Source of the DNA: an uncultured Gammaproteobacteria bacterium
GTDB taxonomy: Bacteria; Pseudomonadota; Gammaproteobacteria; CAWCPV01
Length of the DNA stretch: 64,000 nt
Reading direction: 5' to 3'
Assembly (NCBI GenBank): GCA_963797555.1
Contig: CAWCPV010000003.1
Span: 480,001 to 544,000, forward strand
A model generated the notes under the pieces. The model was not told the origin of the DNA, did not search any database, and saw only the letters and a list, made by a program, of their open reading frames with translations. Position 1 is the first letter of the stretch, and every line of letters begins with the position of its first letter. A program made the translations under genes and the position numbers. This document shows positions 19,245 to 50,353 of this stretch, one piece after another.

Positions 19245-19360
19245 GACGGAGTACCTCTTATGGCTTCATTGCGTATAGGGTGCAGTGCGCGTAACTGTCT
19301 CTCGCATCACCAATCAGCGACGAGAACAGATTACGTAGGCGTACCGCGAACACCACGCAT

Positions 19361-29048: not shown

Positions 29049-32000
29049 GTGAACGCGAAGTCCCCGCATTCCATTCTCGAGCCGCTGCTGGCCAGCGGTC
29101 CGCGTGACAAGGTACGCTGGGGCGGGCTTCAGGGCAGCGGCCTGGGGCTTGCCATCGCCGAGACCTCCCGCAGGCATGCGGGGCTTGTTCTCGTCATCGT
29201 TCCCGATGTCGCCACCGCCCACCGCCTGGAGCAGGAGTTACGTTTCTATCGTGGGGAAGACGAACGCTGTCTGCTACTGGGGCTTCCAGACCGGGAGACG
29301 CTGCCATACGACCTGTTCTCGCCGCACCAAGACATCGTTTCCCAAAGACTCGAGACCCTCTATCGGCTTCCCAGTCTGAGCGCCGGAATTCTCGTCGTAG
29401 CGGCTCCTACCGCGATGCACCGGCTCCCCCCGCGGATTCATTTGGAGTCCCGCGCGCTGCTGGTGTCCAGGGGTCAGCGGCTGCCTCTGGAGTCGTTGCG
29501 CGAACGCCTCCAGGTCGCCGGCTATCAATGCGTCGGGCAGGTCATGGAACGCGGAGAATTTGCCGTGCGCGGCGGACTGCTGGACCTTTTCCCCACAGGC
29601 AGCGGAGTGCCCTATCGCATCGAGCTATTCGACGACGAGGTGGAGAGCATTCGGATGTTCGACCCGGAGACTCAGCGCTCCACGGCACGCATGGATCAGA
29701 TCCGGCTGCTACCGGCGCGGGAGTTCCCGCTGGATGAGGAAGGCGTCACCCGGTTTCGGCAAGGCTGGCGCAGCACCTTCGAAGGAGACCCGCAGGCCAG
29801 CCCAGTCTATCGGGATGTCAGCCAAGGCTTCGCCCCGGCTGGCATCGAGTATTACCTGCCGTTGTTCTTCGAGCAGACTGCAACGCTGTTCGACTATCTG
29901 CCAGGCAGTACTCTGTGCGTGATTCTGGAAGACGTTGAGCGGGCGGCGGAGCGTTTCTGGCAGGACACCAAGCTGCGTTTCGAGCAACGCTGCCACGACC
30001 GGCAGCGACCCGTCCTCGCCCCCAGACAGCTATTCTTACAAACTCCAGAGCTCTTTGCGTCCCTGTCCGGTCTGCCGGCGGTGTACGTGAACGCGGGCCT
30101 GACGGAGCCTCGACAGGGTGCGCTCAACTTCGCTAGCGCCGCTCCCCCGACTCTCCGGGTCAGCGCCCGCAGCCATCACCCCCTAACCGCTTTGGAGGAA
30201 TTCCTGGAGACGTTCCCGGGCCGGGTGCTGTTCGTAGCCGACAGCGTCGGGCGCCGCGAGGTGGTGCTCGAACTGTTGCGTGATCAGAACATCGAGCCGC
30301 TGCCGGTGGACGGGTGGGGCTCCTTCTCGCAGTCTGACATCCGCCTCGGCATAACGGTCGCGGCGCTCGACCAGGGGCTGCTGCTGGCGGAGCCCCCGGT
30401 CGCTGTCGTCACCGAGGAACAACTGTTCGGCGATCGGGCGGCGCAGCCGCGCTCCAGGGAGCGGCCGGTCCGCGATCCGGAGTTGCTGGTGCGCGACCTT
30501 GCGGAGCTCGCGCCCGGGGCGCTGGTGGTCCATGAGGAGCACGGCATCGGTCGCTACCAAGGGCTCCAAAACCTAAACGTGGACGGAGTCGAGTCCGAGT
30601 TCCTGCTGTTGGAGTATGCCGGCGGCGATAAGCTCTACGTGCCGGTCGGCTCACTGCACGCCATTCGACGCTACACCGCCAGCGCCCCCGAGCAGGCAGT
30701 GCTGCACAAACTCGGCTCCGGCCAGTGGGAGCGGGCAAAGCGCAAGGCCGCGGAGCAGGTGCGCGACGTCGCGGCCGAGCTGCTGGAACGTCTATGCGCG
30801 GCGCGCGGCGCGCCGAGGGCATCGGTTCGGCATGGACACGGAAGCTTACCGGGCCTTCGCCGCCGCGTTCCCCTTCGAGGAGACGCCGGACCAGGAGGAA
30901 GCCATACGCAGCGCGCTCGCGGACATGCAGGCGGACACACCGACCGACCGGCTGGTATGCGGCGACGTGGGCTTCGGCAAGACCGAGGTCGCCCAGCGGG
31001 CCGCCTTCGTCGCCGTCCAGGACGGCAGACAGGTAGCGGTCCTGGTGCCGACGACACTGCTTGCACAGCAGCACTACCAGACCTTCCTCGACCGCTTCGC
31101 GGACTGGCCGGTCAAAGTCGAGAGCCTGTCGCGCTTCCGGTCACGCAAACAGCAGCAGGAGGTCTTGGAGGGCTTGGCCGAAGGGCGAGTGGATATCGTG
31201 ATCGGCACCCATCGTCTGCTGTCCCCGGATGTGCACTTCAAGCATCTCGGATTGGTGGTGGTGGACGAGGAGCACCGTTTTGGGGTACGCGACAAGGAAC
31301 GCCTGAAGGCGCTGCGCGCCGAGGTGGACTTGCTGACCCTCACCGCGACGCCCATCCCGCGCACCTTGAACATGGCTCTCTCCGGGCTGCGCGAGATCTC
31401 CGTCATCGCGACCCCGCCGGCGCGACGGCTGGCCATCAAGACGTTTGTCCGCGAGTGGGACGGGCCGCTCATCCGAGAGGCGGTGATGCGCGAGCTGATG
31501 CGGGGCGGTCAGGTGTACTTCCTGCACAACGAGGTGGAGTCCATCGAGCGCGCTGCCCGAGATCTACGGGGCCTGGTCCCCGAGGTCAGCCTCCAGATCG
31601 CCCACGGCCAGATGCGGGAGCGGGAGCTGGAACGCGTCATGCTGGACTTCCACCACCAGCGTTTCAATGTGTTGGTATGTACCACCATCATCGAGTCGGG
31701 GATTGATGTTCCGAGCGCAAATACCATCATCATCGAGCGCGCCGACCGCTTCGGTCTGGCACAGCTACACCAGTTGCGCGGCCGCGTGGGTCGCTCGCAT
31801 CATCAGGCCTACGCTTATCTCATCGCTCCGCCACGGGGCGCCCTCACGGCGGATGCGGCGAAGCGCTTGGAGGCCATCGAGTCGCTGGAGGAGCTGGGGA
31901 GCGGGTTCGTGCTCGCCACTCACGACCTGGAGATCCGCGGAGCAGGCGAGCTGTTGGGGGAGGAGCAAAGCGGCCACATCCAGAACATCGGGTTCTCGCT

Positions 32001-32550
32001 TTACATGGAGTACCTCGAACGCGCGGTGTCGGCCCTCAAGTCGGGGCGCGAGCCGGATCTCGAGACCGCCTTGCGGCGCGATACGGACGTCGATCTCCAC
32101 ATCCCGGCTCTGCTGCCCGAAAGCTACGTGCCGGACGTGCAACTGCGCCTTGTGCTCTACAAGCGCATTGCCAGCAGCACGACGCCGGAGGCCCTCCGGG
32201 ACCTTCACGTAGAGATGATCGACCGTTTCGGGCTGCTGCCAACGCCCGCCAAGAATCTGCTTCGCATCAGCGAGATGAGGCTGAAGGCGCGGGCGCTGGG
32301 GATTCGCAGGATCGACCTGGGCCCCCAGGGCGGAAAAGTCTTGTTCCAGGCTCAGCCGAACGTCGATCCCATGGCCGTCGTCAGGCTGATCCAGGGACAG
32401 CCCAAGATCTACCGCCTGGAGGGGCAGGACGCGCTACGCGTGAGCCTGTCTCTGGCGGACGCAGAGAGCCGTTTTCGCGCCGCCCAGAGTCTGCTGGACG
32501 CCTTGGGCACCGAAGCCGCGGCGGTTCCCCGTCAGCGCGCTTCCGGTTGA
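29049..32550 (+). CDS. mfd: Transcription-repair coupling factor (one frameshift near 30790)
   Basis: LPYDLFSPHQDI, VVHEEHGIGRY, CGDVGFGKTEVA, VDEEHRFG, QLRGRVGR. Confidence 0.96.
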
Positions 32551-32751: not shown

Positions 32752-34799
32752 TCAGTTCAACCCCAACGCCTTAAACGCCGCCTGGCGCATATCGCCGAAG
32801 AACACCGGGTCGACCTGCTCCAGCACGTCCGCGTTGACTTCCAAAAACTGCCGCTTGTTCTCGATCGGGATGAGCGCCCGTTTGGCCCCGTTGTCCATGG
32901 CGACCTGGAGCGGTTCGGTGAGGGAGCGCACGGGCTTGATGTTGCCCTGGATGCTCATGTCACCCAGGACCAGGAGCGCCGGCTGCGGGGGCGACTTACG
33001 CAGCGCGGAGTAGGCGGCAACGAAGAAGGCGACGCCGATCTCGGCCTCCACCTTGTTTCCGAGCAGGTCGATGACCTCGACGTGGAAGTCGGAGGTGTCG
33101 ACTTCCCGAGCGTACTCCGAACGCAGTCTTGTTCGCAGAGCAGGTAGCTGAAGGCCCTGGTCACGGACTCTTTCATCGCACCGCTAACGCCGCCCGCGAG
33201 CCTGAGCTTCCCGGTCCCGGACGACAAGGTGACCTCGACACGGTAGAGACCAACGGTGCCTTCTCCGCTCACGGATGCGGTATAGAGCGGTGCCGGGCGG
33301 CAGCGGGTCGGCGGAGATCAGGTCGCGACCACCCTGCTCAGGCACCCCGACGAACTTCTCCTCGCCGGTCTCGTTGACTTGGTAGCTGAACGAGGTCTGG
33401 TAGTACTCGAAGGAGCCCATCTTCTTGAGCTGCTCCTTCACCCGCCGGCGGCCTTCGATCGCGAACTGCAGGATCTCTTCGAGGTCGTCGCGCGAGACCT
33501 GGCCGTGCGGGATGGAGGATCTTCACCAGTCCCGGAGACGGTGCGGCGGACCGCCTTGCGATCGCGGGCGTTGAGGTGCGGCGCCGAGCGAAAAGTAGTG
33601 GTCGATGATCTCGGTGTAGTTGTGCTTGCGGAGGTCGCGCAGGGCCTCGGCGAGGTAGTCGACGACGAAGCCGTAGTGATCGGTGAAGTGCTCGTTGCGC
33701 ATCTTGGGCACTTCCCAGCCCGGCAGGTAGAAGTGCAGCCGGTCGATGAACGCCATGTCGTCGCGGATGACGTCGGGCAGTCGGCGCGAACAGGTGGCCG
33801 GTCTGCACCATCACGTCGACGGGCTGCTGGGTGTTGCCGAACATCGCGATGCTGGCGTAGCCGGCCATCGCCTCCTGGCCGCGCTGGAATTGGCCTGACT
33901 CGCAGTAGGTCTTCATCATGGTGATGACCTCCTTCGGCATCTTCTGGAGGTCGGCGACCTCGTCGAAGCCGATGGCATCCCAGATCTGGACCATGCCCTT
34001 GTAGCGGCCCTGCTGCTGCCCGAAGAGGTTGGCCACCGTCGTCGGGCCGGTGAGCAGCGCAGAGTAGGGGGAGAGCTCCTGCACCGCGTAGCTCTTGCCC
34101 GTTCCGCGAGGGCCCAGCTCGATGAGGTTGTAGTTGCGCTCGCAGAGCGGGATGAGCCGAGTGAGGAACAGCAGCTTGAGCCGCCGCTCCATCGACCGTT
34201 GGCTCGTAGCCCATGCTGCGCACCATGAAGTCGAGCCACTCGTCGGTGGTGAACTCGGCACGCAGCCGACGGTATTCGTCGAGATCGAAGGTCGCGAGCT
34301 GGATCGGGGTGAGCTTCTCGATCCAGAACGGGTACTTGCCCCTGGTCTCCTCGTCGTACTCGAAGCGCATGTCGATCTGCGCCCAGATGCCGCCGGTGAG
34401 AAGCCGGTCGAAGTCGCGCACGTAGTGGTCGGGGATGTGGACGTACTTGTGGCCGAAGTTCGTGACCTCCGCCCAGTACTGGGAGTCGACCAGGCGGACC
34501 TTCACCTTGTCGATGAAGGTGTGCCGGCCGTTCTCCTTGACCTTGCTCTGCGCCTTGGTACTCTCGTCCGGGCGGATGTAGTTGTCGGCCAGGGTGTCGT
34601 TGACCACCTGCAGCCCCATCTGGATCGCCATCTCGTCGGACGAGGCGCAGTACTTCCCGAGCAGGTACTCCAGCACGAACACCGGAACGTTCGCGCCGAC
34701 CTTGACCTTCCGCACCAGGTCCTTGCGGACGACCTTGCCGGCGAAGACGCGGTTGACCTTGTCGTCAAGGGAGTCGCGAGACGGGGCGGTTTCGGTCAT
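32752..34799 (-). CDS. brxL: BREX Lon-like protease BrxL (multiple frameshifts)
   Basis: GKVVRKDL, NVPVFVLEYLLGKYC, ELGPRGTGKS, AFIDRLHFYLPGWEVPK, C-terminal Lon-like domain; spread over about 6 ORFs. Confidence 0.88.
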
Positions 34800-34801
34800 T
34801 G

Positions 34802-34838
34802 TTGGTTGGTCGTCAGTCGTTGGTCGTCAGTCGTCAGT
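34802..34838. repeat. Heptamer array, downstream arm of four-helix-bundle cassette
   Basis: Plus strand TTGGTCGTCAGTCGTTGGTCGTCAGTCGTCAG, i.e. CTGACGA-type units on the transcribed strand. Confidence 0.85.
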
Positions 34839-35187
34839 GTCGGGATGACCGCAAGGCGTTGAGCATTCGACCCACGCCCGCGCAATCATCCATGATCAGA
34901 GCTAACGAGTCGTTCGGCAAAAAGCCCAACCGATGTGCCAGCTCCGCGTGGGTTTCCAATTCCATCAACGACCCGTACGCGATTGCACAGAAGCGCGTCA
35001 ACTCGGCATCTGTGCCTCGACCCCGTCCCTCGGCAATGCTCGACGGGACCGAGACTGCCGCACGGCGCATCTGGACGGTCAACCCGAACCGCTCATCCGG
35101 CGGGAAACTCTTCGTCGCTTCGTAGACATGTTCCGCAAGCAGCATCGCCTGCTCCCAGACCCGCAAGTCTCTATAGCCTTTGCTCAT
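34834..35187 (-). CDS. Four helix bundle protein (23S rRNA IVS/S23, Avd-like fold)
   Basis: YRDLRVWEQAM, FPPDERFGLTVQMRRAAVSVPSSIAEG, IAYGSLMELET. Confidence 0.92.
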   Translation of the reverse strand: MSKGYRDLRVWEQAMLLAEHVYEATKSFPPDERFGLTVQMRRAAVSVPSSIAEGRGRGTDAELTRFCAIAYGSLMELETHAELAHRLGFLPNDSLALIMDDCAGVGRMLNALRSSRH

Positions 35188-35372: not shown

Positions 35373-37911
35373 TCATATCCCCAGCTTCACCGGCAGCTCA
35401 TCGGACTCGGCCAGCACCCCGTCCGTGCGAGCGTCGAGTACGACGACCCGGAGCGACTGGCAGGCGTCGTTGGTCAGCATCATGCCGACGCTCGCCTCGG
35501 CCCCCAGCGCCAGGGTGAGCGTGCCCTTCGAGCGGTCGAACTGTCCGCCGACCGCCATGCCCGCTCGACCGACCTCCTCCGCACCGGACATCAGCAGGAC
35601 CCGCAGCACGAGCGGCTCGGTGGCGAGCAGGTCACCCGCCGCGCCCAGCTTGAGGCCGAAGGTGCGGTTGGTCACCTTCGGCGGACAGCCCTCGATCCGG
35701 ACGTGCACGCCGGGCACTTCGGCCGGCTTGCCCGCCGCCATGCGCAGGCTGATGACCGGGACCGCCAGCTCCTGCAGGCTGAATCCGCCGTGATGGAAGC
35801 TCAGCCCCCCGCCCGCCTTGAATACCCCGAGCCCGGTCGGGAAGACGAAATCCAGATCCGTGTGGTAGCCGAGATCCGCCCCGGTCACCCGCACCGTGCC
35901 GGCCGGCGTGCTGCCCCCGTACCCGATCCAGCAGCGCCGGTGCAGGTCCAGGGTATCTCCGCCGGGGTTGTCGGTCTTCATGTCGTCGTCCTTGCGGATG
36001 GAGAACTGGTGACCGTGGTCGGCGGCGATGACGAAGTTCTCGATGCCCGCGGCGGCGAGCTTCTTCACCGCCCGCGCGAGGTTCCCGATGATGGCGTCCA
36101 TCACCTGCCGCGCCAGCAAGTCCCCGTCCATCTCCCCGACGAAGTCGATCTCCTGGGAACGGACCACGACCAACGATGCCTTGCCAATGTCCTTGGCAAC
36201 CTTGGACGGCGAGTTGCCGAGCAGCTTTCCCAGCGTCATCTCCACCACGTCCGGCACCTTGGCCTTGAGGAACTTGGTCCGTTCGTTCAGGCCCGGCATG
36301 TCCGTGCCCTCGATGCGCGCCGCGAGCCTTCCCTTGGCCTCCACCACGTCGAAGCTGGCCGAGGCCCCAGGCAGCAGCCCCGCCATGCCGACCGGCGTGA
36401 TGGACGGCAGCGCTGCGACCGCCGCCCGTACTGTGAGATCCTTCGCCCCTTCGATCTGGCGCGCCAGCTCCACGCCCATCTCGAAGCGCATGGCATCGAC
36501 GAAGAAATAGGCGACGCGGCCGCCCTTGGTCAGGACCACGTCGGAGTAGACGCGTGTCTGGTGCAGTGCCCGCGGCACGGTCCAGTGGGATTGTGGCAGC
36601 GCCTTGGCGAACCCGTCCGCCATCGCCCGCAGCAGGTGCTCGTGCTCGTGCCGGACCACCCCGAGCGCCTTCTCCGCCTCCGGCTCGTCGTCCATCTTGG
36701 CGACCCAGGTTTCCAGCCGCCGCTGCAAGGTGTCCGCCCTATGCCAGCCATCCTCGCCCGTATAGGCGGCGAACCACTTGGCCGGATCGCTCCCCATCTT
36801 GGTCAGCGCCGGGCGGATGCGCGCCAGCTCGCGCCCGAGCTCCGCCATCAGCCGGCAAGCCTCCCATTGGGCCTGACGCCGCACGTCGCGGTCCACCCAG
36901 AAGCTGTGACCGCGCTCGGTGATGACGTCCAACGCCGCGTCGTACTGCTTGTCGGCGACGAGCGCGCCCGCATGGCCGAGCAGCCGCTCCTCCTCGAACC
37001 GAAAGGTATCCACCGCACCCAGATGGACTGCATCCACATCTGCACTCGCGAGCCCGAGGTCCTGCTCCACCTTGTCGGCCAGCGCTACATAGGCATCTGG
37101 ATGGCGCCGTCGAAGGCCCTCCGCCACGTCGCGAATGCGCGCGGTCTGCTCCTTTCCGGGCACGCCGGGAACCATGCCGACGGACTTCGGGGGCTCGCAG
37201 GACAGATCGGCCCGGAACTCGTTGACCAACACGTAGCGCGAGGTCTTGTCGCGCGCCTCGGTCACTCCCGTGGCGTCCTGCAGCTCCAGACCCAGGCGGG
37301 CCCCGATCAGCTTGAGAAGCTCAGGGACAGCTTCCTTCTCGACCAAGGATGCGTCCTTCCCGTCGGAGGCGAACCACTCGGTAAGCAGCGCTTCGCCCTG
37401 GGCACCGCCGAACAGGCTGTGCAGCACCGACGCCACCTGGCCCCCTTCGCCCTGCGCCAAGAAGGCGACGATGTCGTCATAGGTCACCGACGCCGGCCGC
37501 AGCATGTCGTCGATCTGCCCGTCGGTGAAACGCTTGCGCAGCACATTCAGCGCCAGGCGCTTGAGCTGCGGCTCGTAGCAGGTGCCCGCCCTTTTCCAGC
37601 TCCATCAGCACCGAGCCCGCGCGGTCCCGTGCAACGCCCGGAAGATAGAGGATCAAGAGGTTCGGGCTTGTCCGCGGCCACGATGGGCTCGACCGCCGCA
37701 CGCAGGCCGAAGAAGGTTCCGTCGATAACGGGCCAGAAAGGCGGCTCGGTCTCCGATCGCTCACCCGTGGCAACACGCCGCCCTCTTGCGCTTCCAGCTC
37801 CCGGTCGAAGAACGGCTCGAACTCGCTCCGAGGGTCGTAAAAGACGACGACCGAGTGCTTCGCGAGAAGCTCGTCGAGGTGCTCGCAAAGGTAGTCGTGG
37901 AAGGGGTTCAC
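35373..37911 (-). CDS. pglZ: BREX PglZ phosphatase-domain protein (frameshifts in first about 350 bp)
   Basis: VVFYDP, FFVDAMRFEMG, LPSITPVGMA, AADHGH, FHHGGFSLQE. Confidence 0.9.
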
Positions 37912-37954: not shown

Positions 37955-38188
37955 TCACTCGCCCAAGGCGTCGAGAAAGCGCCGGATCAGCTCGGGGTGA
38001 TAGTGGATGCCCGTTTGGAGGGCGCGTTCGAGAAATGGCCTAACCTCGGAGATCACTCCCTCCCGTTTCGCCTTGCCCAATAGACCAAGCGCCCCGGTTA
38101 CTCTCAGCCCCACCGCGAGCGCCATGCGCCGCCCCTTCCACTCGTCGATGCAGACTTGCCCAATACCCTCGTCGATCCGGTTATCCAT
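37955..38188 (-). pseudogene. Internally deleted DUF3368 PIN-like toxin
   Basis: Only C-terminal CIDEWKGRRMA..GLRVTGALGLL part remains; compare full paralog at 44324. Confidence 0.75.
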
Positions 38189-38444
38189 GCCGAGCGAAAT
38201 CGATCTCTAGCTCCGCATCATCCGGCCGCAGATTGCTCATCGGAAACCCGATACGAGGCAGCGAGTAAAGAAAATCCACACGGCCCTTGCCACATAACTT
38301 GGCCGCTTGTCCGGAAGAGAGCTTACCCTGTTCGTAGAGCTGCGCCGCCAACAACAGACGAGCCTCATCGGCAAACTCCGCCGGGGACAAACCGAGGTTG
38401 ACGAGCACGTCATCGTCATAGTCGATGATTACTTGATGGGTCAT
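38181..38444 (-). CDS. UPF0175 family antitoxin
   Basis: LLAAQLYEQGKLSSGQAAKLCG..RVDFL. Confidence 0.88.
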   Translation of the reverse strand: MTHQVIIDYDDDVLVNLGLSPAEFADEARLLLAAQLYEQGKLSSGQAAKLCGKGRVDFLYSLPRIGFPMSNLRPDDAELEIDFARHG

Positions 38445-38445
38445 G

Positions 38446-38560
38446 TCAGGGTCCGGGGTTCAGGGGTCAGGGTTCGGTCGTGGGTCGTGGGTCCGTCAGT
38501 CGTCGGTCGTCGGTCGTCGGTCGTCGGTCGTCGGTCGTCGGTCGTCGGTCGTCGGTCGTC
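38446..38560. repeat. Compound heptamer array: GGGTTC(A/G)-type units then 8 perfect GTCGTCG units
   Basis: Read directly; perfect run at 38499-38560. Confidence 0.95.
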
Positions 38561-38641
38561 CGATAATAGCGCGTGCCGCGGCCTGCGCCGGTCCTGGTGA
38601 CCGAGCCGTCGGCGAGCAGGGCGCCGATGGCAGCGTGCCGG

Positions 38642-38917
38642 TCACTCACCGTCCCGTTCCTGGCCGCGCTCCAGCAAATCCAGGTCGGCTAGAATCTCGT
38701 CCGCGGTCTGCTGGAACGGCGTGACGCCGTATCTGCCAAGGGCATCGATGAACTCCGCGCGCGAGACCCCGGCGATCTCGGCGGCACGGCCCTGGCTGAT
38801 GCGCTCCAGCTCGTACCACTTCACGGCCGCGGCCATGCGCATCTCGCGAACGAACTCCTCGGGATCCTTGCGGACACTGGCCAGAACGCTGGGATCGATA
38901 TCGAAGGCTAGGTTCAT
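38642..38917 (-). CDS. UPF0175 family antitoxin (orphan)
   Basis: MAAAVKWYELERISQGRAAEIAGVSRAEFIDAL. Confidence 0.88.
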   Translation of the reverse strand: MNLAFDIDPSVLASVRKDPEEFVREMRMAAAVKWYELERISQGRAAEIAGVSRAEFIDALGRYGVTPFQQTADEILADLDLLERGQERDGE

Positions 38918-38997
38918 CGGGGGTTCCTCGGGTTCGGGGTTCAGTCGTCAGTCGTCAGTCGTCAGATGATAGCGAGTGCCGCGGTCTGGGTTCGGGG

Positions 38998-40335
38998 TCA
39001 GGGTTCGGCCTTCAGGAGTTCGGAGCTTGGGACGACCTCTGCTGAACCCTGACCCCTGGTGGACCCTGAACCTTGTACCCTTCTCCTCCCCGAACCCCGC
39101 ACCCTGGTCCCTGCCGGTGCGGGCGCCTCCAGGAGACTTTTCAGTGCATCCTTGACCGCGGCGGAGGTACGTTCGGCGATGAGTCGATCGATCTCATGTT
39201 GGGGGACCTTGCGGGGCGTCCACTTGCCGGGCTTCGCATTGAGCCCCGCGTCGTCGGTCTTCGGTCTTCGGTCGTCAGCAGAAGACGCCGACGACTGAGG
39301 ACTGACAACTGACGACTCCCCTGTCGACTGACGACTGAAGACTGACGCCTGACGACCGTCTTCCGGCTGACGCCTGACGACCGACGACTGATGACCCTTC
39401 TCCTCCCAGAATACGTCTTCCAGCCCATGCGCGATGGCGAGACTTCGATCCTTCGCGCACTTGGGCACGACCCGCTCGGGCCACAGGTGCATGGCGAGGT
39501 GCGCCCAGTCGTAGTCGCCGGCCACCAGCTTGTCCCAGCAGTCCTTGCACTCCCTCTGCCAGGCGCGGTGACGGGGCACCAGGCGCCACAGCGGCGAGAA
39601 GTTGATGATGACGCCGTCGTTGAGGTCCGGATTCCAGAGCGGAGCGACCCGGGCGACCTCCTCGCGGAAGGCACGCAGCTCCTCGACGAAGGTCTCCTGC
39701 TCCGCGATCTCCTTGCGCTGGCTCGCTGTCGGGTTGCCGCCGCCGTCCTGCACCAGGCCGCGTCAGCTTGCGCTCTTCGTGCTGGAGCTTGGGCGTCACG
39801 AAGTCGTTGAGGACCTGGTAGAAAGTGTCCTTGGTGAAGCGGTGGCAGTAGAGCCAGACCGAATAGCTTGCGCGACGGCGTGGTGAGCTGCCAGTAGATC
39901 GGCGCCTTGCGGCGGCTCTTGGAATAGCGCCGGATGTGCTCGGCGAAGAAGCTGCCGGCGAGCCAGCCCTGCAAGTCGTGGCCACGGGGGTCGAGGATCT
40001 CGGCGGCCTCCTGCCAGCGGGCGTCGGCGTCCTCGGCGAAGACGCATCGGAAGACCTGGCGTGCCCGGCCGGTGAGGTCGCGCCCATGGCCCGGGTCGTG
40101 CGACCAGGATGCCGTCCGCGGGGAAGTCGATGGGATAGCCGGGAGGCGGCCCCTCCAGCGGCAGCCCGTCGTCGCCCGTCAGCATGCCCGGCGAGCAGAC
40201 TGGCAGCGGATCGAAAGGCTCGGGCTCCACGGGCGCCGCCCGCTCGCCGGTGGCCAGCCGCAGGTCGAAGCGCCCCAATGCGACACCGACGAGCCAGTCC
40301 ATCAGCTCAGCGACGAGACCGGCGGGGTCGCTCAT
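38998..40335 (-). CDS. pglX: PglX C-terminal segment (frameshifted), separately initiated
   Basis: VGVALGRFDLR, YSKSRRKAPIYWQL, PDLNDGVIINFSPL, GDYDWAHLAM. Confidence 0.75.
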
Positions 40336-40568
40336 GCCACCTCGACCACCAGCCGGTGCCGGATGGCCGGCGCGGGCCGACCCAGCTTCTGCAGGCTCTC
40401 AAGGTGCAGGTCCAGCGCCTCGCAAGCGTGCGCGAAGGCCTCCGGAAGGGTGTCGCCGCTCGTGATGATCTCGGGGATATCCGGGAAGGTCACGCTGTAG
40501 GCCGGCTCCTGGGCCTCATAATCGACGGTGAAGACATAATCGCGATAGACATGGCGAGTGGTCATCAT
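40332..40568 (-). CDS. hicB: HicB-family antitoxin
   Basis: YSVTFPDIPEIITSGDTLPEA..HACEAL. Confidence 0.88.
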   Translation of the reverse strand: MMTTRHVYRDYVFTVDYEAQEPAYSVTFPDIPEIITSGDTLPEAFAHACEALDLHLESLQKLGRPAPAIRHRLVVEVA

Positions 40569-40801
40569 GGCTGCAGAAGCTCCAGAAGCTTACGAATGTC
40601 CGCGGGGTGGCAGTGAGCACGGCCGCCGTGGGGCCGCACCAGGGTCAGCAGCCGCCCGTCGGCGCGATGGTAGGTGCGGTGGCTGCCTCGGGCATTGAAG
40701 AGGACGAAGCCCTCGTAGCGCAGCAGCGCCTCGACCTCGGAGAACCGCACGGACCCGGGCGAGCGGCGCATGCGCTCGATGAGCTTCTCGCGTCGTGTCA
40801 A
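40565..40801 (-). CDS. hicA: HicA-family toxin
   Basis: VRFSEVEALL..EGF....RGSHRTY...PH. Confidence 0.85.
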   Translation of the reverse strand: MTRREKLIERMRRSPGSVRFSEVEALLRYEGFVLFNARGSHRTYHRADGRLLTLVRPHGGRAHCHPADIRKLLELLQP

Positions 40802-41856
40802 TCCAACTCCTCCCCGGCATCCTCATCGCCCCCGTCCCCAAGCTCCGCAGAGGCCAGCGCCGCGGCCCGGTCGGCCGTGGAGAAGCCGTAAAGATCGAAG
40901 CAGCGCTCGTCGATCTCCGCCTGAATGCGGGCGAGCTCGCCCTCGGTCTCCGCGACCCGGTCCGCCCAGGCCGCCCAACGCTCGCGAAGCCTCGCGCCCC
41001 CGACCTGCAAGAGGGCCGGCAGCACGAAGGCGTGGGAGGTCTGGGTGCGGGTGTCGAGGGAGCGCTTGAGGGACCAGGCGCGGCGGGAGAGGGTGGCGAG
41101 TGCGTTGGGTCGTCGTCAGCGTCGTCGGTCGTCGGTCGTCGGTCGTCAGCGGGGGGACGGGCGTGCTGCTGGATACCCCGACTTCGTAGGACTGCGCCAG
41201 CTCGACCGCCAACTGAAGCTCGACCAGCGCCCGGAAGGGCGGCTGTTGACCACCGCGAGCAGCGCGAGCAGGGTCTCCGGGTCGTCGCCCTCGACGAAGG
41301 CGGCCGGCCCCTTGTCCGCGAAGATGCAGCCCGCCGGCATCGCGCGGATGGAGAGGCCATTGGTCCGCCGCGGCCAGGTGAGGCCGGGGCGGAAGAAGCA
41401 GTCGACGTTCCGGGCGTTGCGAGTCCACTGTCCAGGATCGTCCAAAGAAGCTCGAAGTAAGTCTTCCTTCTGTCGGCTCCCAGTCAACCAGCCAGATACA
41501 CGTCGGCGTAGAAAGGGCTGAGAGCTCCGCCCTTGGCAAAAGGCACACCAACGTCCCTTCCCACGCAGGTAGCCCGGTCTCCCAGACCAAGGCGCAGAAA
41601 TCGAAAATCGTCCGCGCGTCGCCAGTCCCAGACTTCGCGTGTCGCTGTCCGCTGTCCTCAAAGTGGTGGCAAGTGTAGGAACAGTTCCTCGACTTCGATC
41701 GCTTACCCAGTACGCAAACGGTGAGCGCGGCACGGCGCGAAAGGACTCTGGATCGACATCGAACCGCTCCGAATGCGGTCGGGCGTTCTGATCGCCGTCG
41801 CGCAGCGCCGCCGCCTTGTCCTCGGCCTCGATGACGCGGAAGAAGGTCGCCTTCAT
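40798..41856 (-). CDS. pglX: PglX middle segment (target-recognition region; several frameshifts)
   Basis: VPRSPFAYW, FFRPGLTWPRRT, MPAGCIFADKGPAAF, EIDERCFDLYG; starts by ATGA overlap with the N-terminal part. Confidence 0.7.
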
Positions 41857-44115
41857 GCGCCTGTTCCTGAACCCTGCACCCCGAACCCTAACCGACCCTC
41901 CAAGCAATACGCCGCCGCCTCGACCATCGCATCGTCCATCACCCCGTAGCCGAGATCGGCGACGACGACCGGCGGGGCCTCCTTGAGGAGGATCTCCTCG
42001 CGCCAGCGTTGGAAGGAGGACAAGAAGAAGCCGGTCCGGGAGGTGATGGCGCCGAGGCGGCTCCGCGGGTGCAGCAGCCTGATGCCTCGTTCCACGAAGG
42101 CCGCGTACATGTCGTTCTTCGTGCGCGGCCAGGCGGATGACGCCCAGGAACGCACGCCTTCCGGGAATGCCCCGAATGGCGGATTCATGAGTACTACGTC
42201 GAAACGCAGAAGGCACAAGTCGATGAAGCCGAGCCCTCGCGCGGCGTCCTCGCTGAACAGGCGCCGCTGATAGGCTCGACCGTTCGAGGCGTGCTCGGCG
42301 TACGCACGAAGCGCGCGAAGGACTTCCTGCTCCGCCCTCCGCCAGCGCTCCTCGTCGAGTGTGCGAAAAAGCGTCCCATGCTCGCCGTGGATCTCCCGCA
42401 CGGCGTCGCGGATATCCTCCTCGATGCGCAGCAGGGAGCCCGCCTCGCCGGCAAGCTCCATACGCTCGAAGACGCGCGCGACGAGCTTTGCGAGGTCGGG
42501 ATCGAGGGCCGCGAGGAACTCTCGCCGCAGATCCGGCTCCCCGGGCATGGGCTCGGCCACGACGATATTGGTCTTCCGGATGGCGCGGCGCTTGCTGCGG
42601 CGCGATGCCGAAATCCTGATAGGCCCGCTGCGCCCGCATCCAGAGCGCCAAGGCGGCGATCTGCGCACAGCGGGCGTCGATGTCGATGCCGTGGAGGTTG
42701 TGCCTAAGGATGAGTCCCGGCAAGGCCAGGCGCAGGGCGTCGAGGTCCGGGTAGTCGTCGCGCAGGCGGCGCCCCGTCACCTCGGAGGCGGGCGAGTCCG
42801 AATCGGCCCAGGCCTCCTCGTAGATGACGAGCAGCAGGTCGAAGGCATAGAGCAGGAAGTGCCCCGATCCGCAGGCGGGGTCGAGGATCTTGAGGTCGCG
42901 GGGGTCTTTCTTCGGTCTTCGGTCGTCAGCGAATGCGTCGCCGGTCTTCAGTCGTCGGTCGTCAGCGGATGCGTCGTCTGTCTTCAGGCGTCTGTCATCA
43001 GCCGAGGAGTCTCCTGCTGACGACTGATGACTGACGACTGACGACACTTCCCCCGACGACTGACGACCGACGACTGACGACTGCTCCCCCGACGACTCTT
43101 CCCGCACCAGATAGTCCAGCTCACGGAGCCTGGTCTTGCCTTGCCGCATCTCGTACCAGATGCGTCCCAGCGTGTTGTCCGTGAGGAACTGGACCACATA
43201 GCGGGGGGTAAAGAACTGGTTCCGCACCGCAAGCTCGCGGGTGTTGCGCGGCGCCTGGCTTTCCGCGCGCATCTGCCGGCGCTCTTCGTCGCCGTTGAAG
43301 TACTGGTAGACCCAGCCGATGGTTTCGTCGAGCTGCCAGATGGTCGTCGGTCTTCGGTCATCGGTCGTCGGCCCCGGTCCTCCTGCCGACGACTGAAGAC
43401 TGACGACTGATGACAATCCCTCATCGTTCAGGATCCCCAACAGCTCCGCCAACGCCTGCCTCCGCGGCCACAGCAGGCTCGCCGGATCGCGCCGGTCGAA
43501 CAGCACCCGCACCTCGCGGCCGATTTCGTCGAACAGGCTCTCGATGTAGAGCCGGTAGCCGTGGTCCGGGAGTTGTACCAACCCCGGTGCCAGGCCGCAG
43601 AACTCCTTGAAGCCGGAGGATTGCTCGCCCCGGGAGATGCACTCCTGCACCAGCCCGCGAGCCTCGAGCATCTTCAGCGCCACGAACCGGTTCAGCGTGG
43701 TGAAGGCCGCCTCGCGCCGGAAGGCTGCAACTGCTTCGGAATAGTCATCAGTCGTCGGCCGTCTGTCGTCTTGGGGGAAGTCGTCAGTCGTCAGTCGTCG
43801 GTCGTCAGCGGTTCCATCGTCGGTTGTCGGTCGTCGCTCATCGGCGGGGGTGAGTTTGCTGACGACTGAAGGCCGATGACCGAAGACTGCCGACCGATGA
43901 CTGACGACCGACGACACCGCGTGCTCCACTGCGGCTACCAGCTTGCTCCGCACGACCCGCTGCGCCGCATCCAGATGGCTGCCAGGCTCGGCAGCGATGG
44001 TCCCGTCCAAGCGGATGTCGAAGACACCCTCCAATTGCTCCGCGAACTCCCGCTCCAGCAGCGCTCTGGCAGCCTGAGTAGCCTTTTGGATGCGGTTGCG
44101 GGTTTCTTTGTCCAT
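41853..44115 (-). CDS. pglX: PglX N6-adenine methyltransferase, N-terminal/catalytic part (frameshift near 42600)
   Basis: FTTLNRFVALK, IGWVYQYF, QFFTPRYVV, ILDPACGSGHF (motif I), MNPPF (motif IV). Confidence 0.9.
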
Positions 44116-44323
44116 TTGTCAGGGTGGGGTCGAGCGTGATAGTGCTCGGAATCACATGGGTTTGACTATTTGCACATAAGTACGCTCGCGGGCGAAAAAT
44201 TTACGGTCGCGATCATAAATTCGGCCTGCGCTTCTAGGCAGTGCCTCTGCCCTTGCGGCAGAGGTATAAGATGTCCGGCGCTGTCCTAGGCTCGCCTGAT
44301 AACACCTGAAACCCCGAACCCTG

Positions 44324-44812
44324 CTATTCACCGACCTCGCTCAACAGCCGCCGAACCAATTCGTCGGACGCGTACAAGCCAGTTGCAAGCAACCGTCTGA
44401 CGACCGGCTCCGCCCAATCAATCAATCCCCTTGCCTTCGCGCGCCCGACGATTCCCAGTGTGCCGATGACCGCCAAGCCCATGGCCATCGCACAGCGGCG
44501 ACCTTCGCGGTCGTCGATGACGACTCGCTCCGCGTGATGCGCAAGCGCATGGGCAATGACCTGGGTTTCGCCAGCACCCAAGTCCCAGCTAAGAATCTCT
44601 GGGGCTGCGCCCACGTCTTCGACGATGACAAAGGCCGGGGCGTGTGAGATCCCTTTGAGGATTGTGCGACCGTCGGGCTTGGCGCCCACCTCCTCCGCAA
44701 CGGACCTCGGAACGTCGACCCGTTCGGCCATTTTGCCCAGTAGCCCGAGGGTTGCCGCCTTGCCGAGCAAGATCAGCGGCGAGGCGTTAACGACCCAGCG
44801 CTTAGACTCCAT
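44324..44812 (-). CDS. DUF3368 PIN-like toxin
   Basis: WVVNASPLILL, DLGAGETQVI, VIDDREGRRCA, VIGTLGIV. Confidence 0.9.
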   Translation of the reverse strand: MESKRWVVNASPLILLGKAATLGLLGKMAERVDVPRSVAEEVGAKPDGRTILKGISHAPAFVIVEDVGAAPEILSWDLGAGETQVIAHALAHHAERVVIDDREGRRCAMAMGLAVIGTLGIVGRAKARGLIDWAEPVVRRLLATGLYASDELVRRLLSEVGE

Positions 44813-45056
44813 GGATCTCGTCCGCCAACTCGTCGGGTGCGACCTGGCAGGCCGGGACCTTGCGCCGGTAAAGCTCATCCAGGAACTCGGCTCTTGTCAG
44901 GTCAGCAAGCTCCGCCGCCTTTCCCTGAGACACGATCCCCTGCGCATACCATTGCACCGCCGCGGCGATTCGCATCTCGCGGGCAAATTCGGCGGGCGCC
45001 AGCCGGAGAGCACCGAATGCCGAGGCGTCGAAGTCGAAGCTGATCGTAGTGGTCAT
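44802..45056 (-). CDS. UPF0175 family antitoxin
   Basis: AAAVQWYAQGIVSQGKAAELADLTRAEFL; overlaps toxin start. Confidence 0.88.
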   Translation of the reverse strand: MTTTISFDFDASAFGALRLAPAEFAREMRIAAAVQWYAQGIVSQGKAAELADLTRAEFLDELYRRKVPACQVAPDELADEIHGV

Positions 45057-45141: not shown

Positions 45142-48100
45142 CTACTGCACCAACACCTTCTTGCCCGCGGCGATCAGCTCCAGGCACTGCTCCTTCAGCC
45201 CGCCGAGCGCCTGATCGAGCTGTTCCTCGTTCTCCACGCCGCCGGCGAAATAGCTCGACGCGGAGACTTTCACCACGCGGCTGCCGTCGATGACGCGCAT
45301 CAGTTCCTCGATGGCCTTGTCCCGGCGCACGGGACAGGCGTCGAGGTCGGCGCGGAGCTGCGGTATGGACGGGTTGGTTGCCTTGGCGACGGTGTAGGCG
45401 GCCAGCGGCTCGGCGATACGGTCGCGGTGCTCCTCGCCGACCTGCTGCCAGCCGGGCGTTCCGCGAAGCTGCTGGAGAGCGGTTTCGTATGCCTGGACAC
45501 GTGCATCCAATGCCTGGTCCAGCCGGGCCTGGTAGGCGTCCTCCAGCGCTTTGGTGTGCTGGTCGATGGCCGGAAGCTCGCGATAGAAGGACTCTCGGGC
45601 CATCAGGTCCGCGAGCTTGTCAGCGTGCTCCCGATCGTTGTCGCCGAGGTCCGGCTCGTGTTGCAGGAAGGGCCCGGTGCTGTCGAGTACCTTGCGCGCC
45701 CGGCCGAGGTCGTGAAGCGCGGTTTCCGTCAGGGCGTTGGCGAGCTCCGCGCCGCGTTTGATGGCTTCCTTGAGCTCCTGGTGGCAAGCAGTGAATGCCT
45801 TCAGCGCCTGGCAGTCCCGCTGGCGGCGAAAGCCGACGATGTTGCTCAATGCCGTCTCCAGGATCTCGGCCCCCGGTAGGGCATGCTTGTCGAGCTGGGC
45901 GGCAACAGCGCGCAGGGTCTCCTCGTGCGCCTCCGTGGTCTCGCGGATGGTCTGGGCGATGACATTTTCCTCGTACTCCTGGATTTCTTTGCCGAAGCAG
46001 GTCTTGTAGGCTTCGCCGGCCTCGACGTAGTCCGCGAACTCGCAGTCGGTCGCGCGCGGGCGGAACGAGGCCTGGCGGAACAGGTTGTTGTTGGTGAAGG
46101 TGGTGCGCGCCTCCAGGGAGAGGGCGGACTCGATGACCTGGCCCTTGCTGGTCGCCTCGATCTTGCCGGCGCGCAGCAGCGCGATGACGAGCAGGCGAAC
46201 AACGTCGAAGTCCCAGCCGAAGGGTTCCTTGGCGAATTCGTCGGTCAGATAGCGGCCGCTGGCGACCTCGCCATAGCTGGTGCGGTTCTGATGCGTGCGA
46301 GCACCTCGGCGAGCGACGCCGCTCTCGACGTTGAAGACGGGTTTGCCGCCCTGGTCGCGCACCAGGCCGAGATCGGTGTAGACGGGTGTCAGTCCGCGCA
46401 GGTTCTCGGTGGTCAGAAGAGAATCGAGGTCGTGCTTGTTGACGCGGGCGGCGGCCTCCTCGAAGCGGTCGAAGACCTCTGGCAGGGCCTGAGACAGGAC
46501 CTTCGAGGCAGTCCTCGATACCTCGCTCGCCCCTTCCTCCGGGCTGCGGTCGTTGCCCCGGAAGAAGATGGTGCCGTTCAGCAGGGACTGCTTGATCAGG
46601 CGCCGCAGCTCGTCCTGGTGGCGGCGTTGCCTGAGCTTCTCCTCCGCGACCAGGGCGGTCTCGTCCTTGGTCTGGGCGCCGCGTTCCTTGCGGGACAGGA
46701 TCTCCCTGGAGCGAAAGATCTCGACGGTTTCACGGTCGATCGCATCGCCGAGGGCGGCAACCCAGAAGACGGCCTTGGTCTCCGTCTGGCTGCGCCTGCG
46801 GAGATCCTCGACTTGTTCGTCGTACTCGCTCCCCGCCTCGGCGAGGGTCAGGTGGAAGGGAATGTCCCCGTCGACCGTCAACCGCCCCCCGAGGTAAAGA
46901 CCCGCCTTGAAGAGCTTGACGTCGAGCAGACTGTGGGACGGTTGCGGCTGCCACAGGGCGGTGACGATCTCGGCGTGCAAGCGGCTGGTATCGCCTGGCT
47001 TGGGGGACAGACTGGAGCGCTGGCGTTCCCAGTCGTCTTCCGCGGGGGTGGGAATACGGTAGCCGTCGTCTCCGCGGCGGACCATGAGACCCTTCTCCAA
47101 GGCGTCCAGGGCCTGGCGGACCTCGGCAAGGCGCGAATCGGCATCGACGGCTGGGTGGAGCGCGGCGGCGATGTTCTCGGGCGTGCGGTGAATGCTGCGG
47201 ACGTATTGCAGCAGGCAGATCGCCTTGGCGACGGGCTGGGCGAGCGGGTGGGCGATCTTGGTACCGATGTCGGCGATCTTGCCGCGGATCTCGCTGCCGA
47301 TGTTCCCGGAGACGAGGTCGTAGATCTGATCGACCCGTGCGAGCTTCCCGACGGGCTCGTCGGCCAAGTCCACATCGGGATGGATGAGCAACTGCTGGGC
47401 GAGCTTGATGATGGTGCGGTTCGCGCCGCCGACGTGCCTGCTCGCACCGGCCTGGGTACGCAGGCCGGAGACGATCTGGATGATGAGGTCGATCTGGTAA
47501 GGGAGCAGCGGGTAGAGGTCGATGAAAGACTCGGTCGACAGCTCCGGAAGCTTGATGTCCGCCGTGATGCGGGTGTTGTCGGTCAGCCGCCCGCGGTGCT
47601 GGGTGAACAGCTCGCGGAGCAGCTTCTCCGCCGCAGCGTTCTTGGAGAGCACGCGCTTGCTGGTGACCTCGGAGATGTCCGACGGCTCCAGGTGCACCTG
47701 AAGCGGGAAACGGTCCATCAGACGCGCAAGCTCGACGCGGCGGTCGTCGAGGCCGCCGACCAGCTCCGTGAGCTTCTCCTGGGAGGTGACGACCACCCAC
47801 ATCTTGCCACGGCCGAGGCGCCCGAGGTTCTGCACGACGGCCTGGAGGTCGAGCATCTTCTGCACGTCGCGGGCGACGAACTGGCCGACCTCGTCCACCA
47901 CGAACAGCAGTGTCTTGCCGGGTCGGCGGCGCGACATGAGATTCAGTCCCCGTGCGGCGAGATCGCCGGGGGTGATGTCCGCGCGCTTCATGGCCGACTC
48001 GCGCCAACTGTCCACCGTCGCATAAGTGGCAGGGTCCAGCTCGTGCATCACGCGGCTCGCCTGCTGGACGGCGATGGCGATCTTGCCCTTCTCGAAGTCC

Positions 48101-48675
48101 CAGTCCTTGTCGAAGATCTGCCGATACTTGGCCTTGAAGGCGTCGAGGCGACCTTCCTCCTCCAGCGTGATCTCCAGCTCGGAAAGGTCCAGATCCCGCG
48201 CGTACCCCAGGCTCTGAAGGAAGAGCCGGTACATGATCTCGGTGATGCTCTGATTGCCGGTGCGGATGCCGCGGTCGGTGGAGACGTCGAAGATGACGGC
48301 CTCGGTGGGGATCTGCTCGGCGATGTTGCTCAGCAGGACCTGAATCTTCGGATCATGACAGCGCTGGGCGAGCAGCTCGCCGGCGCCCTGCCCCAGGATG
48401 TCCCGGTTGGCGAGGGCGAGCCCGAGGTACTTGGCGAAGCTGGACTTCCCGGAGCCGAAGAAGCCCGAAACCCAGACGGCGATGCCCTCGTTGGGTTTCC
48501 GCCAAGTGGTTTGGTAGTGGTCGAAGACTTCGCGGAAATGCGTGCGGATCGAGTCGGTGACGACATACTCGGCCAGCTCATCGCGGATGATCTGCTGGTC
48601 GGCTTGGTCGACCTTGATGACTTCCTCGATGCGCCGTTCGATGTCGCTGGCGAAAAGGTCTTTGATTGTGGGCAT
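45142..48675 (-). CDS. brxC: BREX P-loop ATPase BrxC
   Basis: IEEVIKVDQ, EYVVT, WVSGFFGSGKSSF, VDEVGQF, VTSQE, YPLLPYQ. Confidence 0.93.
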   Translation of the reverse strand: MPTIKDLFASDIERRIEEVIKVDQADQQIIRDELAEYVVTDSIRTHFREVFDHYQTTWRKPNEGIAVWVSGFFGSGKSSFAKYLGLALANRDILGQGAGELLAQRCHDPKIQVLLSNIAEQIPTEAVIFDVSTDRGIRTGNQSITEIMYRLFLQSLGYARDLDLSELEITLEEEGRLDAFKAKYRQIFDKDWDFEKGKIAIAVQQASRVMHELDPATYATVDSWRESAMKRADITPGDLAARGLNLMSRRRPGKTLLFVVDEVGQFVARDVQKMLDLQAVVQNLGRLGRGKMWVVVTSQEKLTELVGGLDDRRVELARLMDRFPLQVHLEPSDISEVTSKRVLSKNAAAEKLLRELFTQHRGRLTDNTRITADIKLPELSTESFIDLYPLLPYQIDLIIQIVSGLRTQAGASRHVGGANRTIIKLAQQLLIHPDVDLADEPVGKLARVDQIYDLVSGNIGSEIRGKIADIGTKIAHPLAQPVAKAICLLQYVRSIHRTPENIAAALHPAVDADSRLAEVRQALDALEKGLMVRRGDDGYRIPTPAEDDWERQRSSLSPKPGDTSRLHAEIVTALWQPQPSHSLLDVKLFKAGLYLGGRLTVDGDIPFHLTLAEAGSEYDEQVEDLRRRSQTETKAVFWVAALGDAIDRETVEIFRSREILSRKERGAQTKDETALVAEEKLRQRRHQDELRRLIKQSLLNGTIFFRGNDRSPEEGASEVSRTASKVLSQALPEVFDRFEEAAARVNKHDLDSLLTTENLRGLTPVYTDLGLVRDQGGKPVFNVESGVARRGARTHQNRTSYGEVASGRYLTDEFAKEPFGWDFDVVRLLVIALLRAGKIEATSKGQVIESALSLEARTTFTNNNLFRQASFRPRATDCEFADYVEAGEAYKTCFGKEIQEYEENVIAQTIRETTEAHEETLRAVAAQLDKHALPGAEILETALSNIVGFRRQRDCQALKAFTACHQELKEAIKRGAELANALTETALHDLGRARKVLDSTGPFLQHEPDLGDNDREHADKLADLMARESFYRELPAIDQHTKALEDAYQARLDQALDARVQAYETALQQLRGTPGWQQVGEEHRDRIAEPLAAYTVAKATNPSIPQLRADLDACPVRRDKAIEELMRVIDGSRVVKVSASSYFAGGVENEEQLDQALGGLKEQCLELIAAGKKVLVQ

Positions 48676-48992: not shown

Positions 48993-49572
48993 TCAAAAAA
49001 TCCTCGGCCGGTAGTTGTGCTCGGCGTCCAGAACGCCCATGAAGCGCAGGCCGGCGGCACCATCGAGATCACCCGGGTAGAACAGGACGGCGGGGACGTG
49101 CACCTTGCCCTTGAGCTGCTCCAGCAACGCGGAGGTGCGGTACATGGGGAAGAGCGCACCCGCGCGCACGATGAATACCACGTCGCGCTGCGGGTCGGCG
49201 TCCTCCGGGATGCGGCGCGCGACCAGCTCGTCCAGGGGTTGGTACTCGCTCAGGATCTGGAAGACGGTCTCGACCGTCGCTTCGAGGCCCACGGATCTTC
49301 TCCGCGTCGACCAGCGCCTCGGGCCCCATGCCTTCCGCCTCCAGAGCCTCGCTGAGGCATTCGGCGAGGGAGATAGTCGTCACCCGTTTGCCCGTCTGCT
49401 CCAGCCGCGTGCGCAGGAGCGCGACTTCCTGGCGGACCGAAAATTCCTCTTCCGGCGGGTAGCGGAAGATGGCGTAGGGCATGTCGTGGTAGGCGCTGAT
49501 CTGCTGCCTGGGGTCCGGCCGCTTCAGCGCCGGTTCGAGCTGCTGAGTGAGGCGTTCCCTCCAATCGGACAT
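48993..49572 (-). CDS. brxB: BrxB (DUF1788), frameshift near 49295
   Basis: IFRYPPEEEF, GALFPMYRTSALL, VLFYPG, HNYRPRIF. Confidence 0.85.
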
Positions 49573-50351: not shown

Positions 50352-50353
50352 GC

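Follow-up and report, generated by a model that had tools for sequence, protein, structure and literature searches.

We analyzed a 64,000-nt stretch of DNA from an uncultured gammaproteobacterium (G000:C3:480001-544000, hereafter the window, to which all coordinates refer), in which a hicAB toxin-antitoxin (TA) pair lies inside pglX, a gene of a type 1 bacteriophage exclusion (BREX) operon. With moderate confidence, we interpret hicAB as a cargo cassette that occupies a fixed slot in a type 1 BREX PglX naturally made of several pieces. The slot looks like a tolerated, reusable site for extra genes rather than a simple breakage of the gene. At the sequence level, the recurrence of the arrangement, also in unrelated bacteria, and the intact PglX pieces of other carriers support a split that is tolerated at a domain linker and coupled in translation.

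Anatomy of the hicAB pair within pglX

The window's pglX (38998-44115, minus strand) is located between brxC and pglZ. It is read in the order N part, mid part, hicA, hicB and C part, that is, as three pglX open reading frames (ORFs) with ATGA or TTGA junctions; no single PglX/BrxX polypeptide of about 1200-1400 aa is encoded in the window. The N part (41853-44115, minus) covers the N-terminal helical region and the methyltransferase (MmeI_Mtase, Eco57I), whose gamma-class N6-adenine methyltransferase core is recognized by PF20473 (31.9 bits), PF07669 (36.6 bits) and an LMNPPFG motif in the translation. The mid part (40798-41856, minus) comprises the target recognition domain (TRD) and spacer helices, includes an insertion of heptamer repeats and aligns to the mid ORF of another carrier, locus L067. 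The C part (38998-40335, minus) was traced by tblastn to the homologs P0004, P0005 and P0006 and to the C part of L067. The first cut, at the hinge between methyltransferase and TRD (site 1), is an ATGA junction at 41853-41856 (minus): the N part ends in GSGTGA, and its TGA stop overlaps the ATG of MKATFFRVIE. It is free of cargo. The second cut (site 2) holds hicAB.

Both genes of the pair are intact, and the toxin gene comes first. hicA (40801-40565, minus; 78 codons, TTG start) matches HicA_toxin (PF07927) with 34.2 bits against a gathering cut-off of 27 (E = 2.7e-8), and its translation contains NARGSHRTY, the conserved G-S-H motif with the histidine. This histidine has a catalytic role in HicA toxins. 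Identity to HicA of other loci is 60-91%. hicB (40568-40332, minus; 78 codons) matches HicB_lk_antitox (PF15919) over profile positions 3-57 of 123 (39.6 bits, cut-off 27, E = 7e-10). The two gene names proposed in a first-pass annotation of the sequence thus stand, both Pfam matches being above cut-off. HicB ends at residue 78, without a C-terminal ribbon-helix-helix (RHH) or helix-turn-helix (HTH) DNA-binding domain, yet it is full length for its subfamily: all 26 members in our alignment (A1) have 77-78 aa.

Each of the three junctions around the pair is a 4-nt overlap. The mid part ends in an acidic linker, GDGGDEDAGEELD, and its TGA stop (40800-40798) lies inside the TTG start of hicA (40801-40799), giving TTGA at 40798-40801 (minus). 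The hicA stop (40567-40565) overlaps the hicB ATG (40568-40566) as ATGA, and a second ATGA (40332-40335, minus) is shared by the hicB stop (40334-40332) and the start codon of the C part (ATG, 40335-40333). The ORF downstream of hicB begins with MSDPAGLVAELMDWLVGVALGRFD. These overlaps had been noted in the first-pass annotation, and reading the minus strand together with its translations reproduced all of them. A Shine-Dalgarno-like string is present a few bases upstream of each start; that of hicA, GGGGAGGAG, is formed by Glu and Gly codons of the linker and ends 5 nt upstream.

No sigma-70-like promoter or terminator was found on the minus strand within 38900-44400. hicAB is probably transcribed together with pglX, since it has no promoter-like or terminator-like site of its own. 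Direct repeats flanking hicAB were not found, nor was a hicAB paralog elsewhere in the same genome that could define the ends of the cassette.

To place the cuts on known structures, we used alignments to homologs. The mid part maps to residues 662-960 of Salmonella PglX, the C part of L067 aligns to residues 1079-1204 of the same protein (8C45), and the continuous homolog P0033 aligns to residues 473-1192 of E. coli BrxX. With the domain limits given in PMC11341690, the window cuts correspond to the hinge at residues 654-659 and to the spacer/C-terminal border at about 960/961. This mapping puts hicAB where the spacer helices meet the C-terminal region.

The pair occupies a linker that is continuous in PglX homologs

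A search with the N-terminal 505 aa of PglX returned 5225 longer proteins, of which the best 120 were taken. These are single chains of 887-1710 aa, up to 66% identical to the query, and several are named BREX-1 PglX. The PglX sequence flanking hicAB was matched by 27 of them; 11 matched both flanks, in every case within one chain. In the nine homologs that were aligned, IQAEIDxxxFxLYG leads through an acidic linker into LVAELxxWxVGxAFGRFD without interruption. Because homologs of about 1400 aa, a comparison proposed in the first-pass annotation, run straight through the linker, hicAB is an insertion into the linker, without loss of PglX sequence.

None of twelve homologs shorter than 1200 aa ends in the acidic linker; they look truncated or frameshifted. 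In homolog P0092, a 23S-IVP domain is N-terminal rather than located at the linker. Of the best 120 stand-alone proteins that resemble the C part, 14 have their first residue between -9 and +12 relative to the hicAB site, and two of these begin with MSDPGA, as does the C part of the window.

The same junction recurs in other loci

We collected loci of the HicB subfamily from metagenomes (58) and genomes (80, the best of 131 confirmed); HicB was found in 137 of the 138. Linkage to pglX was scored by tblastn with PglX queries and by reading the junctions. By this measure, 17 of the 137 loci are linked to pglX. The linker::hicAB junction occurs in nine loci besides the window, so that other pglX::TA splits, for which a search had been proposed, do exist. 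Both flanks are present in L011, L023, L067 (an Ectothiorhodospiraceae metagenome-assembled genome, MAG), L072 (a gammaproteobacterial MAG) and L100 (an Isosphaeraceae MAG), and one flank before the contig end in L050, L054, L056 and L060. Scars of the linker and/or of the C-part start lie beside hicAB in L010, L022, L026, L087, L088 and L089, and in L009 and L081 hicAB directly follows a complete pglX without scars. None of the same-class genomes compared has this locus, and there is no close relative among them; a 176-nt match in an unpublished genome (G039) was set aside.

The stop/start overlaps recur along with the junction. All 10 embedded or remnant copies at pglX, the window's among them, have a hicB that ends in ATGA; of the 94 subfamily copies elsewhere, 5 do. 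At the hicA start, NTGA is present in 10 of 11 copies, the stop being lost in L054; other than in the window, it is seen in L067, L072, L011, L023, L100, L050, L088, L026 and L010. Stop/start coupling is thus more than chance, the ATGA at the end of hicB is specific to pglX-linked copies, and the coupling described for the window extends, with the same overlaps, to other assemblies.

Three of the carriers have long ORFs on both sides of the pair. L067 combines a mid ORF of 363 aa with a C ORF of 331 aa, L072 one of 347 aa with one of 299 aa, and L011 one of 371 aa with a C ORF of at least 103 aa that runs off the contig. hicB is intact in all three; hicA is intact in L011 and frameshifted in L067 and L072, the frame in L067 being lost just past the GS of the G-S-H motif. 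Pairwise identity among the three is 43-53% for the mid part, 51-52% for the C part and 70-75% for HicB. That ORFs of 300-370 codons stay open at 43-53% identity implies purifying selection on the PglX pieces. In marsh-metagenome contigs from two public runs, the end of the mid part, hicB and the start of the C part are found at 91-96% identity, and a 285-nt stretch with hicA is swapped for 171 other bases.

The first-pass annotation had favored a functional split protein over a destructive insertion. Intact PglX ORFs in three loci agree with this and speak against plain destruction; the window's own pglX has about 15 frame breaks, which are considered below and are probably assembly errors.

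In L100 (L100:330-5914), a pglX that is continuous over the linker is followed by an AAA ATPase gene, a 242-aa ORF, a 58-aa remnant of the mid-part end, hicAB and, for a second time, a C part, intact and 300 aa long. This arrangement could represent a replaced allele or a spare module.

The hinge holds cargo of its own in other carriers. In L067 (L067:3434-8681), it amounts to 5.3 kb and consists of DuOB, two DUF488 genes, AAA_21 plus DUF4276, and a Shedu SduA_C gene. The hinge cargo of L072 comprises PIN and DUF433-type TA genes, that of L011 a Fic gene and that of L100 a PIN gene; in the window the hinge is cut and cargo-free. L067 also has a Phd/PIN pair after the C part.

Different histories of the cassette and its host gene

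The HicB tree (125 rows, 78 columns) was built by a quick method, and many of its forks are unresolved. On it, the pglX-linked copies mostly belong to two starred clusters. One (support 95) unites the window, L009, L067, L010 and L072, all five linked to pglX; the other (support 98) unites L023, L100, L088, L022/L089 and L087, six of six linked if the linker scar of L087 is counted. The tree of the PglX C part has 104 rows; in it, split genes appear in at least three places separated by starred forks. There, the C part of the window nests among continuous PglX proteins, apart from L067 and L072; read through with X at the breaks, it is 75% identical to P0120. A single clade of the eight split rows was rejected by the approximately unbiased (AU) test (p = 0.002), but this clade was named after the tree had been seen, which counts against the test. 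The HicB and PglX C-part trees disagree; hence, hicAB has not shared the history of the gene that hosts it. Taken with the scars at the flanks, the disagreement suggests that hicAB moves between pglX alleles, or that C parts are swapped, by recombination through the conserved flanks.

Frame breaks in the window copy

We called frame breaks by frameshift-aware alignment to intact homologs, comparing brxL and pglZ with their paralogs on contig C7. Relative to P0004, P0005 and P0006 (tblastn), frame changes recur along the window's pglX, both before and after hicAB. The N part has one break, an extra base at about 42597 (tblastn frame change at about 42600). The mid part has 11: nine single extra bases between 41694 and 41434, one missing base at about 41240 and one extra base at about 41131. 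Three extra bases, at about 40098, 39869 and 39757, break the C part. At least five breaks are present in brxL and none in pglZ, and brxC, hicA and hicB are each one open ORF.

It is fairly likely, in our judgment, that these breaks are mostly technical, that is, single-base insertion errors of the assembly. Four lines of evidence lead us to this reading. First, 19 of the 20 breaks are single extra bases, the nine within 260 nt of the mid part restore the frame, and no nonsense substitution was seen. Second, housekeeping genes are broken in the same manner: lon (16805-19265) is split over two frames, with Lon_C in another frame at 16805-17545, mfd (29049-32547) changes frame at about 30590 and an htrA-like protease gene (3469-4393) at about 3800. 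Frame arithmetic gives +1 for all of these shifts. Third, the assembly carries indel noise. Between near-identical insertion sequence (IS) copies, one family shows 9 substitutions and 4 indel columns, another 14 substitutions and 17 indel columns, and the duplicated contig ends have 23 gap openings in 7.4 kb; such indel-to-substitution ratios are unnaturally high. Fourth, in the overlapping stretches, the extra bases seem to be absent from related contigs: where 2, 1 and 0 sites are predicted, the alignments have 2, 1 and 0 gaps, respectively (as counts, without gap positions). The real copy would then probably have the intact three-ORF form. An initial reading of brxL as having in-frame stops and of pglX as a decayed pseudogene was dropped after the frameshift-aware alignments and the checks of lon, mfd and the htrA-like gene.

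Systematic single-base insertions may also explain why the genome is only 84.6% complete. rpoB was not found in this genome, and the frames of ileS and two other synthetase-like genes are open. IS elements are abundant, with 2302 self-matches of at least 700 bp across the genome, and two ISL3 transposase copies in the window (12746-14145 and 56668-58105) are both split at about position 125 of the 240 in the profile.

The same breaks are open to another explanation, which we consider possible but rather unlikely: the BREX locus is truly decaying, and an old hicAB insertion survives as an addiction module amid real frameshifts of pglX and brxL. About 15 breaks in pglX and at least five in brxL, as opposed to none in brxC, pglZ, hicA and hicB, would fit such decay. 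Interruption of pglX is reported to be common in nature (PMC9716671, citing Goldfarb 2015). A second BREX locus of the genome, on C7, has a 1421-aa pglX ORF and could replace this one, and elsewhere hicAB copies with remnants only are found (L022, L026, L087 and L089). The single-base character of the breaks, their presence in lon, mfd and the htrA-like gene, the indel noise and the related contigs all speak against it.

Proposed mechanism and role of the pair

In the mechanism we propose for the cargo cassette, PglX of this lineage would be encoded by three ORFs, with hicAB filling site 2 exactly, from start codon to stop codon. The pair would be co-transcribed with pglX. Each downstream PglX piece would be translated by termination-reinitiation through the 4-nt stop/start overlaps, possibly aided by the Shine-Dalgarno-like GAGGAG strings that Glu codons of the linker provide, and the pieces would assemble after translation. 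The cassette itself may be a selfish or accessory addiction module, presumably an active TA pair where both genes are intact. Moving between pglX alleles by recombination through the conserved flanks, it would leave the scars seen at the linker and at the start of the C part. The toxin gene would often decay, while hicB and the split persist. A hitch-hiking addiction cassette fits better than an essential part of the system, because L067 and L072 carry a frameshifted hicA and the marsh relatives have other sequence in its place.

Several observations weigh against the cargo-cassette interpretation and against a technical origin of the breaks. The breaks in pglX (15 in about 5.1 kb) and brxL (at least five in about 2.1 kb) have roughly 10 times the indel density of the IS copies, and zero breaks occur in brxC (3.5 kb), pglZ and hicAB. 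Real decay of pglX and brxL stays on the table because of this unevenness. With hicA broken in L067 and L072 and absent from the marsh relatives, many carriers may hold an inactive TA pair. Just three other loci have the complete split flanked by long ORFs. The planctomycete cluster consists of near-copies of one another, mostly remnants next to a continuous pglX (L100, L088). Finally, about 120 of the 137 loci of the HicB subfamily show no PglX nearby.

A more elaborate scheme would make PglX a modular three-subunit enzyme, both junctions dedicated cargo slots exchanged by recombination, the Glu codons ribosome-binding sites that would let any ORF placed there be expressed, and hicAB a functional tripwire that releases its RNase when a phage blocks translation of pglX or assembly of BREX. 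Taken as a whole, we regard it as unlikely. The guard function alone seems to us quite improbable. In it, HicAB would be a working part of this BREX variant, translated only by way of pglX; a disturbance of PglX production or of the complex (for example, by phage inhibitors) would deplete HicB, and the HicA RNase set free in this way would serve as an abortive back-up. Its attraction lies in the absence of a promoter-like site in front of the cassette, in a HicB whose lack of a DNA-binding domain makes autoregulation unlikely, in the conserved stop/start overlaps and in the auxiliary RNase effectors known from BREX loci (PMC12839542). A guard role is weakened by the repeated loss of hicA: in three carriers it is frameshifted or deleted and the split is kept. 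The HicAB subfamily, moreover, is mostly found outside BREX. A one-off destructive insertion or an assembly chimera of this contig, which the noisy assembly and the absence of a hicAB paralog in the genome might suggest, is hardly credible, as the same junctions occur in independent metagenome contigs, in MAGs from other phyla and in contigs of two public runs.

The BREX operon and its neighborhood

The type 1 BREX operon extends over 32.7-50.4 kb on the minus strand, with Pfam matches for all six of brxA, brxB, brxC, pglX, pglZ and brxL. brxA (49575-50396, minus) and brxB (about 48996-49379, minus) were both identified by Pfam. brxC (45142-48675, minus), directly upstream of pglX in the operon, is an open 1177-aa ORF with DUF6079 and the BrxC wHTH and helical domains. 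pglZ (35373-37544, minus; Pfam PglZ) shows no frame break relative to its C7 paralog, and brxL (32752-34799, minus) has BrxL_N, BrxL_ATPase and Lon_C distributed over four frame pieces, its breaks being single extra bases.

Small TA-like genes stud the operon. A DUF3368/PIN gene (44324-44878) precedes pglX, and two UPF0175 genes and a DUF3368 fragment follow it (38642-38947, 38181-38444 and 37955-38188). A 23S-rRNA-IVP four-helix gene (34834-35187) is located between pglZ and brxL. Another PglZ-domain protein (335-2113, plus strand; 593 aa, PF08665, 1.1e-25) is encoded 33 kb from the operon. The second type 1 BREX locus of the genome (G000:C7:485785-500466) codes for a 1421-aa PglX, an 851-aa PglZ and a 709-aa BrxL; its PglX is about 44% identical to that of the window, and its brxC region appears to be cut into four ORFs.

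Arrays of the heptamer GGTCGTC/GACGACC, often as inverted pairs, are confined to the BREX locus of the window (35249; 38500-38585; 39247-39401; 41118-41172; 42900-43100; 43340-43420; 43740-43920). Degenerate heptamer runs of at least three units number four in the 5.3-Mb genome, all of them within the window. In pglX the heptamers are read in frame as SSVV... and ...TTDDRRP, and similar peptides are present at the same places in P0004 and P0006. A role in phase variation is conceivable, because a 7-nt unit shifts the frame by one.

Comparison with known systems

Compared with single-chain type 1 PglX/BrxX proteins (Salmonella 8C45/8Q56; E. coli 9EWZ/8ZEK), the window form belongs to the same family, with the same domain order and the same placement between brxC and pglZ. 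It differs in being encoded by three ORFs and in holding a TA pair in the second cut. In turn, hicAB shares with type II HicAB systems the Pfam domains above cut-off, the toxin gene in first position and the 4-nt overlap. It differs in that its HicB has just 78 aa without RHH or HTH, in that the pair lacks a promoter-like site and in that it lies within the reading frame of another gene.

Accessory genes nested in a defense system have been described as embedded defense genes (10.1101/2024.01.29.577857) and as BREX auxiliary effectors (PMC12839542). The present case is of the same kind, an unrelated gene nested recurrently in a core system (17 of 137 loci). In the portions of these reports available to us, however, the nested genes lie between core genes, whereas the cargo here lies inside the pglX coding sequence, at domain linkers. 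The terms 'PglX', 'split' and 'HicA' are absent from the main text of the preprint, and 'split' and 'HicA' from the BREX survey (PMC12839542, 2026), as far as the latter was available; the supplements of both could hold cases. We found no description of a TA pair inside pglX in the literature searched, supplements aside.

An interrupted pglX is not new in itself. No other BREX gene is found broken or divided in two as often, and its interruption is widespread (Goldfarb 2015, as cited in PMC9716671). Such interrupted or phase-variable pglX genes have been read as inactivated. Here, by contrast, the cuts are at domain borders, the coupling is conserved and the pieces are intact in other carriers. 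Should the split form be functional, PglX would have a separable subunit in its C-terminal region, which could be expressed, swapped and studied alone. Several residues in contact with the phage inhibitor Ocr lie in this region (PMC11341690).

The finding also carries the notion of embedded defense genes beyond intergenic positions and into a coding sequence. A rule for tolerated nesting is also suggested, namely, acidic inter-domain linkers whose Glu codons resemble ribosome-binding sites. The arrangement offers a natural system for asking whether TA pairs stabilize or back up a defense operon. A parallel is offered by the free-standing homing endonuclease genes of phage genomes, selfish elements whose insertion divides an essential gene where this is tolerated, so that both halves stay functional. 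The pglX case differs from these genes in pieces in that HicA belongs to an RNase family, no homing mechanism is evident and the spread looks like recombination through the flanks.

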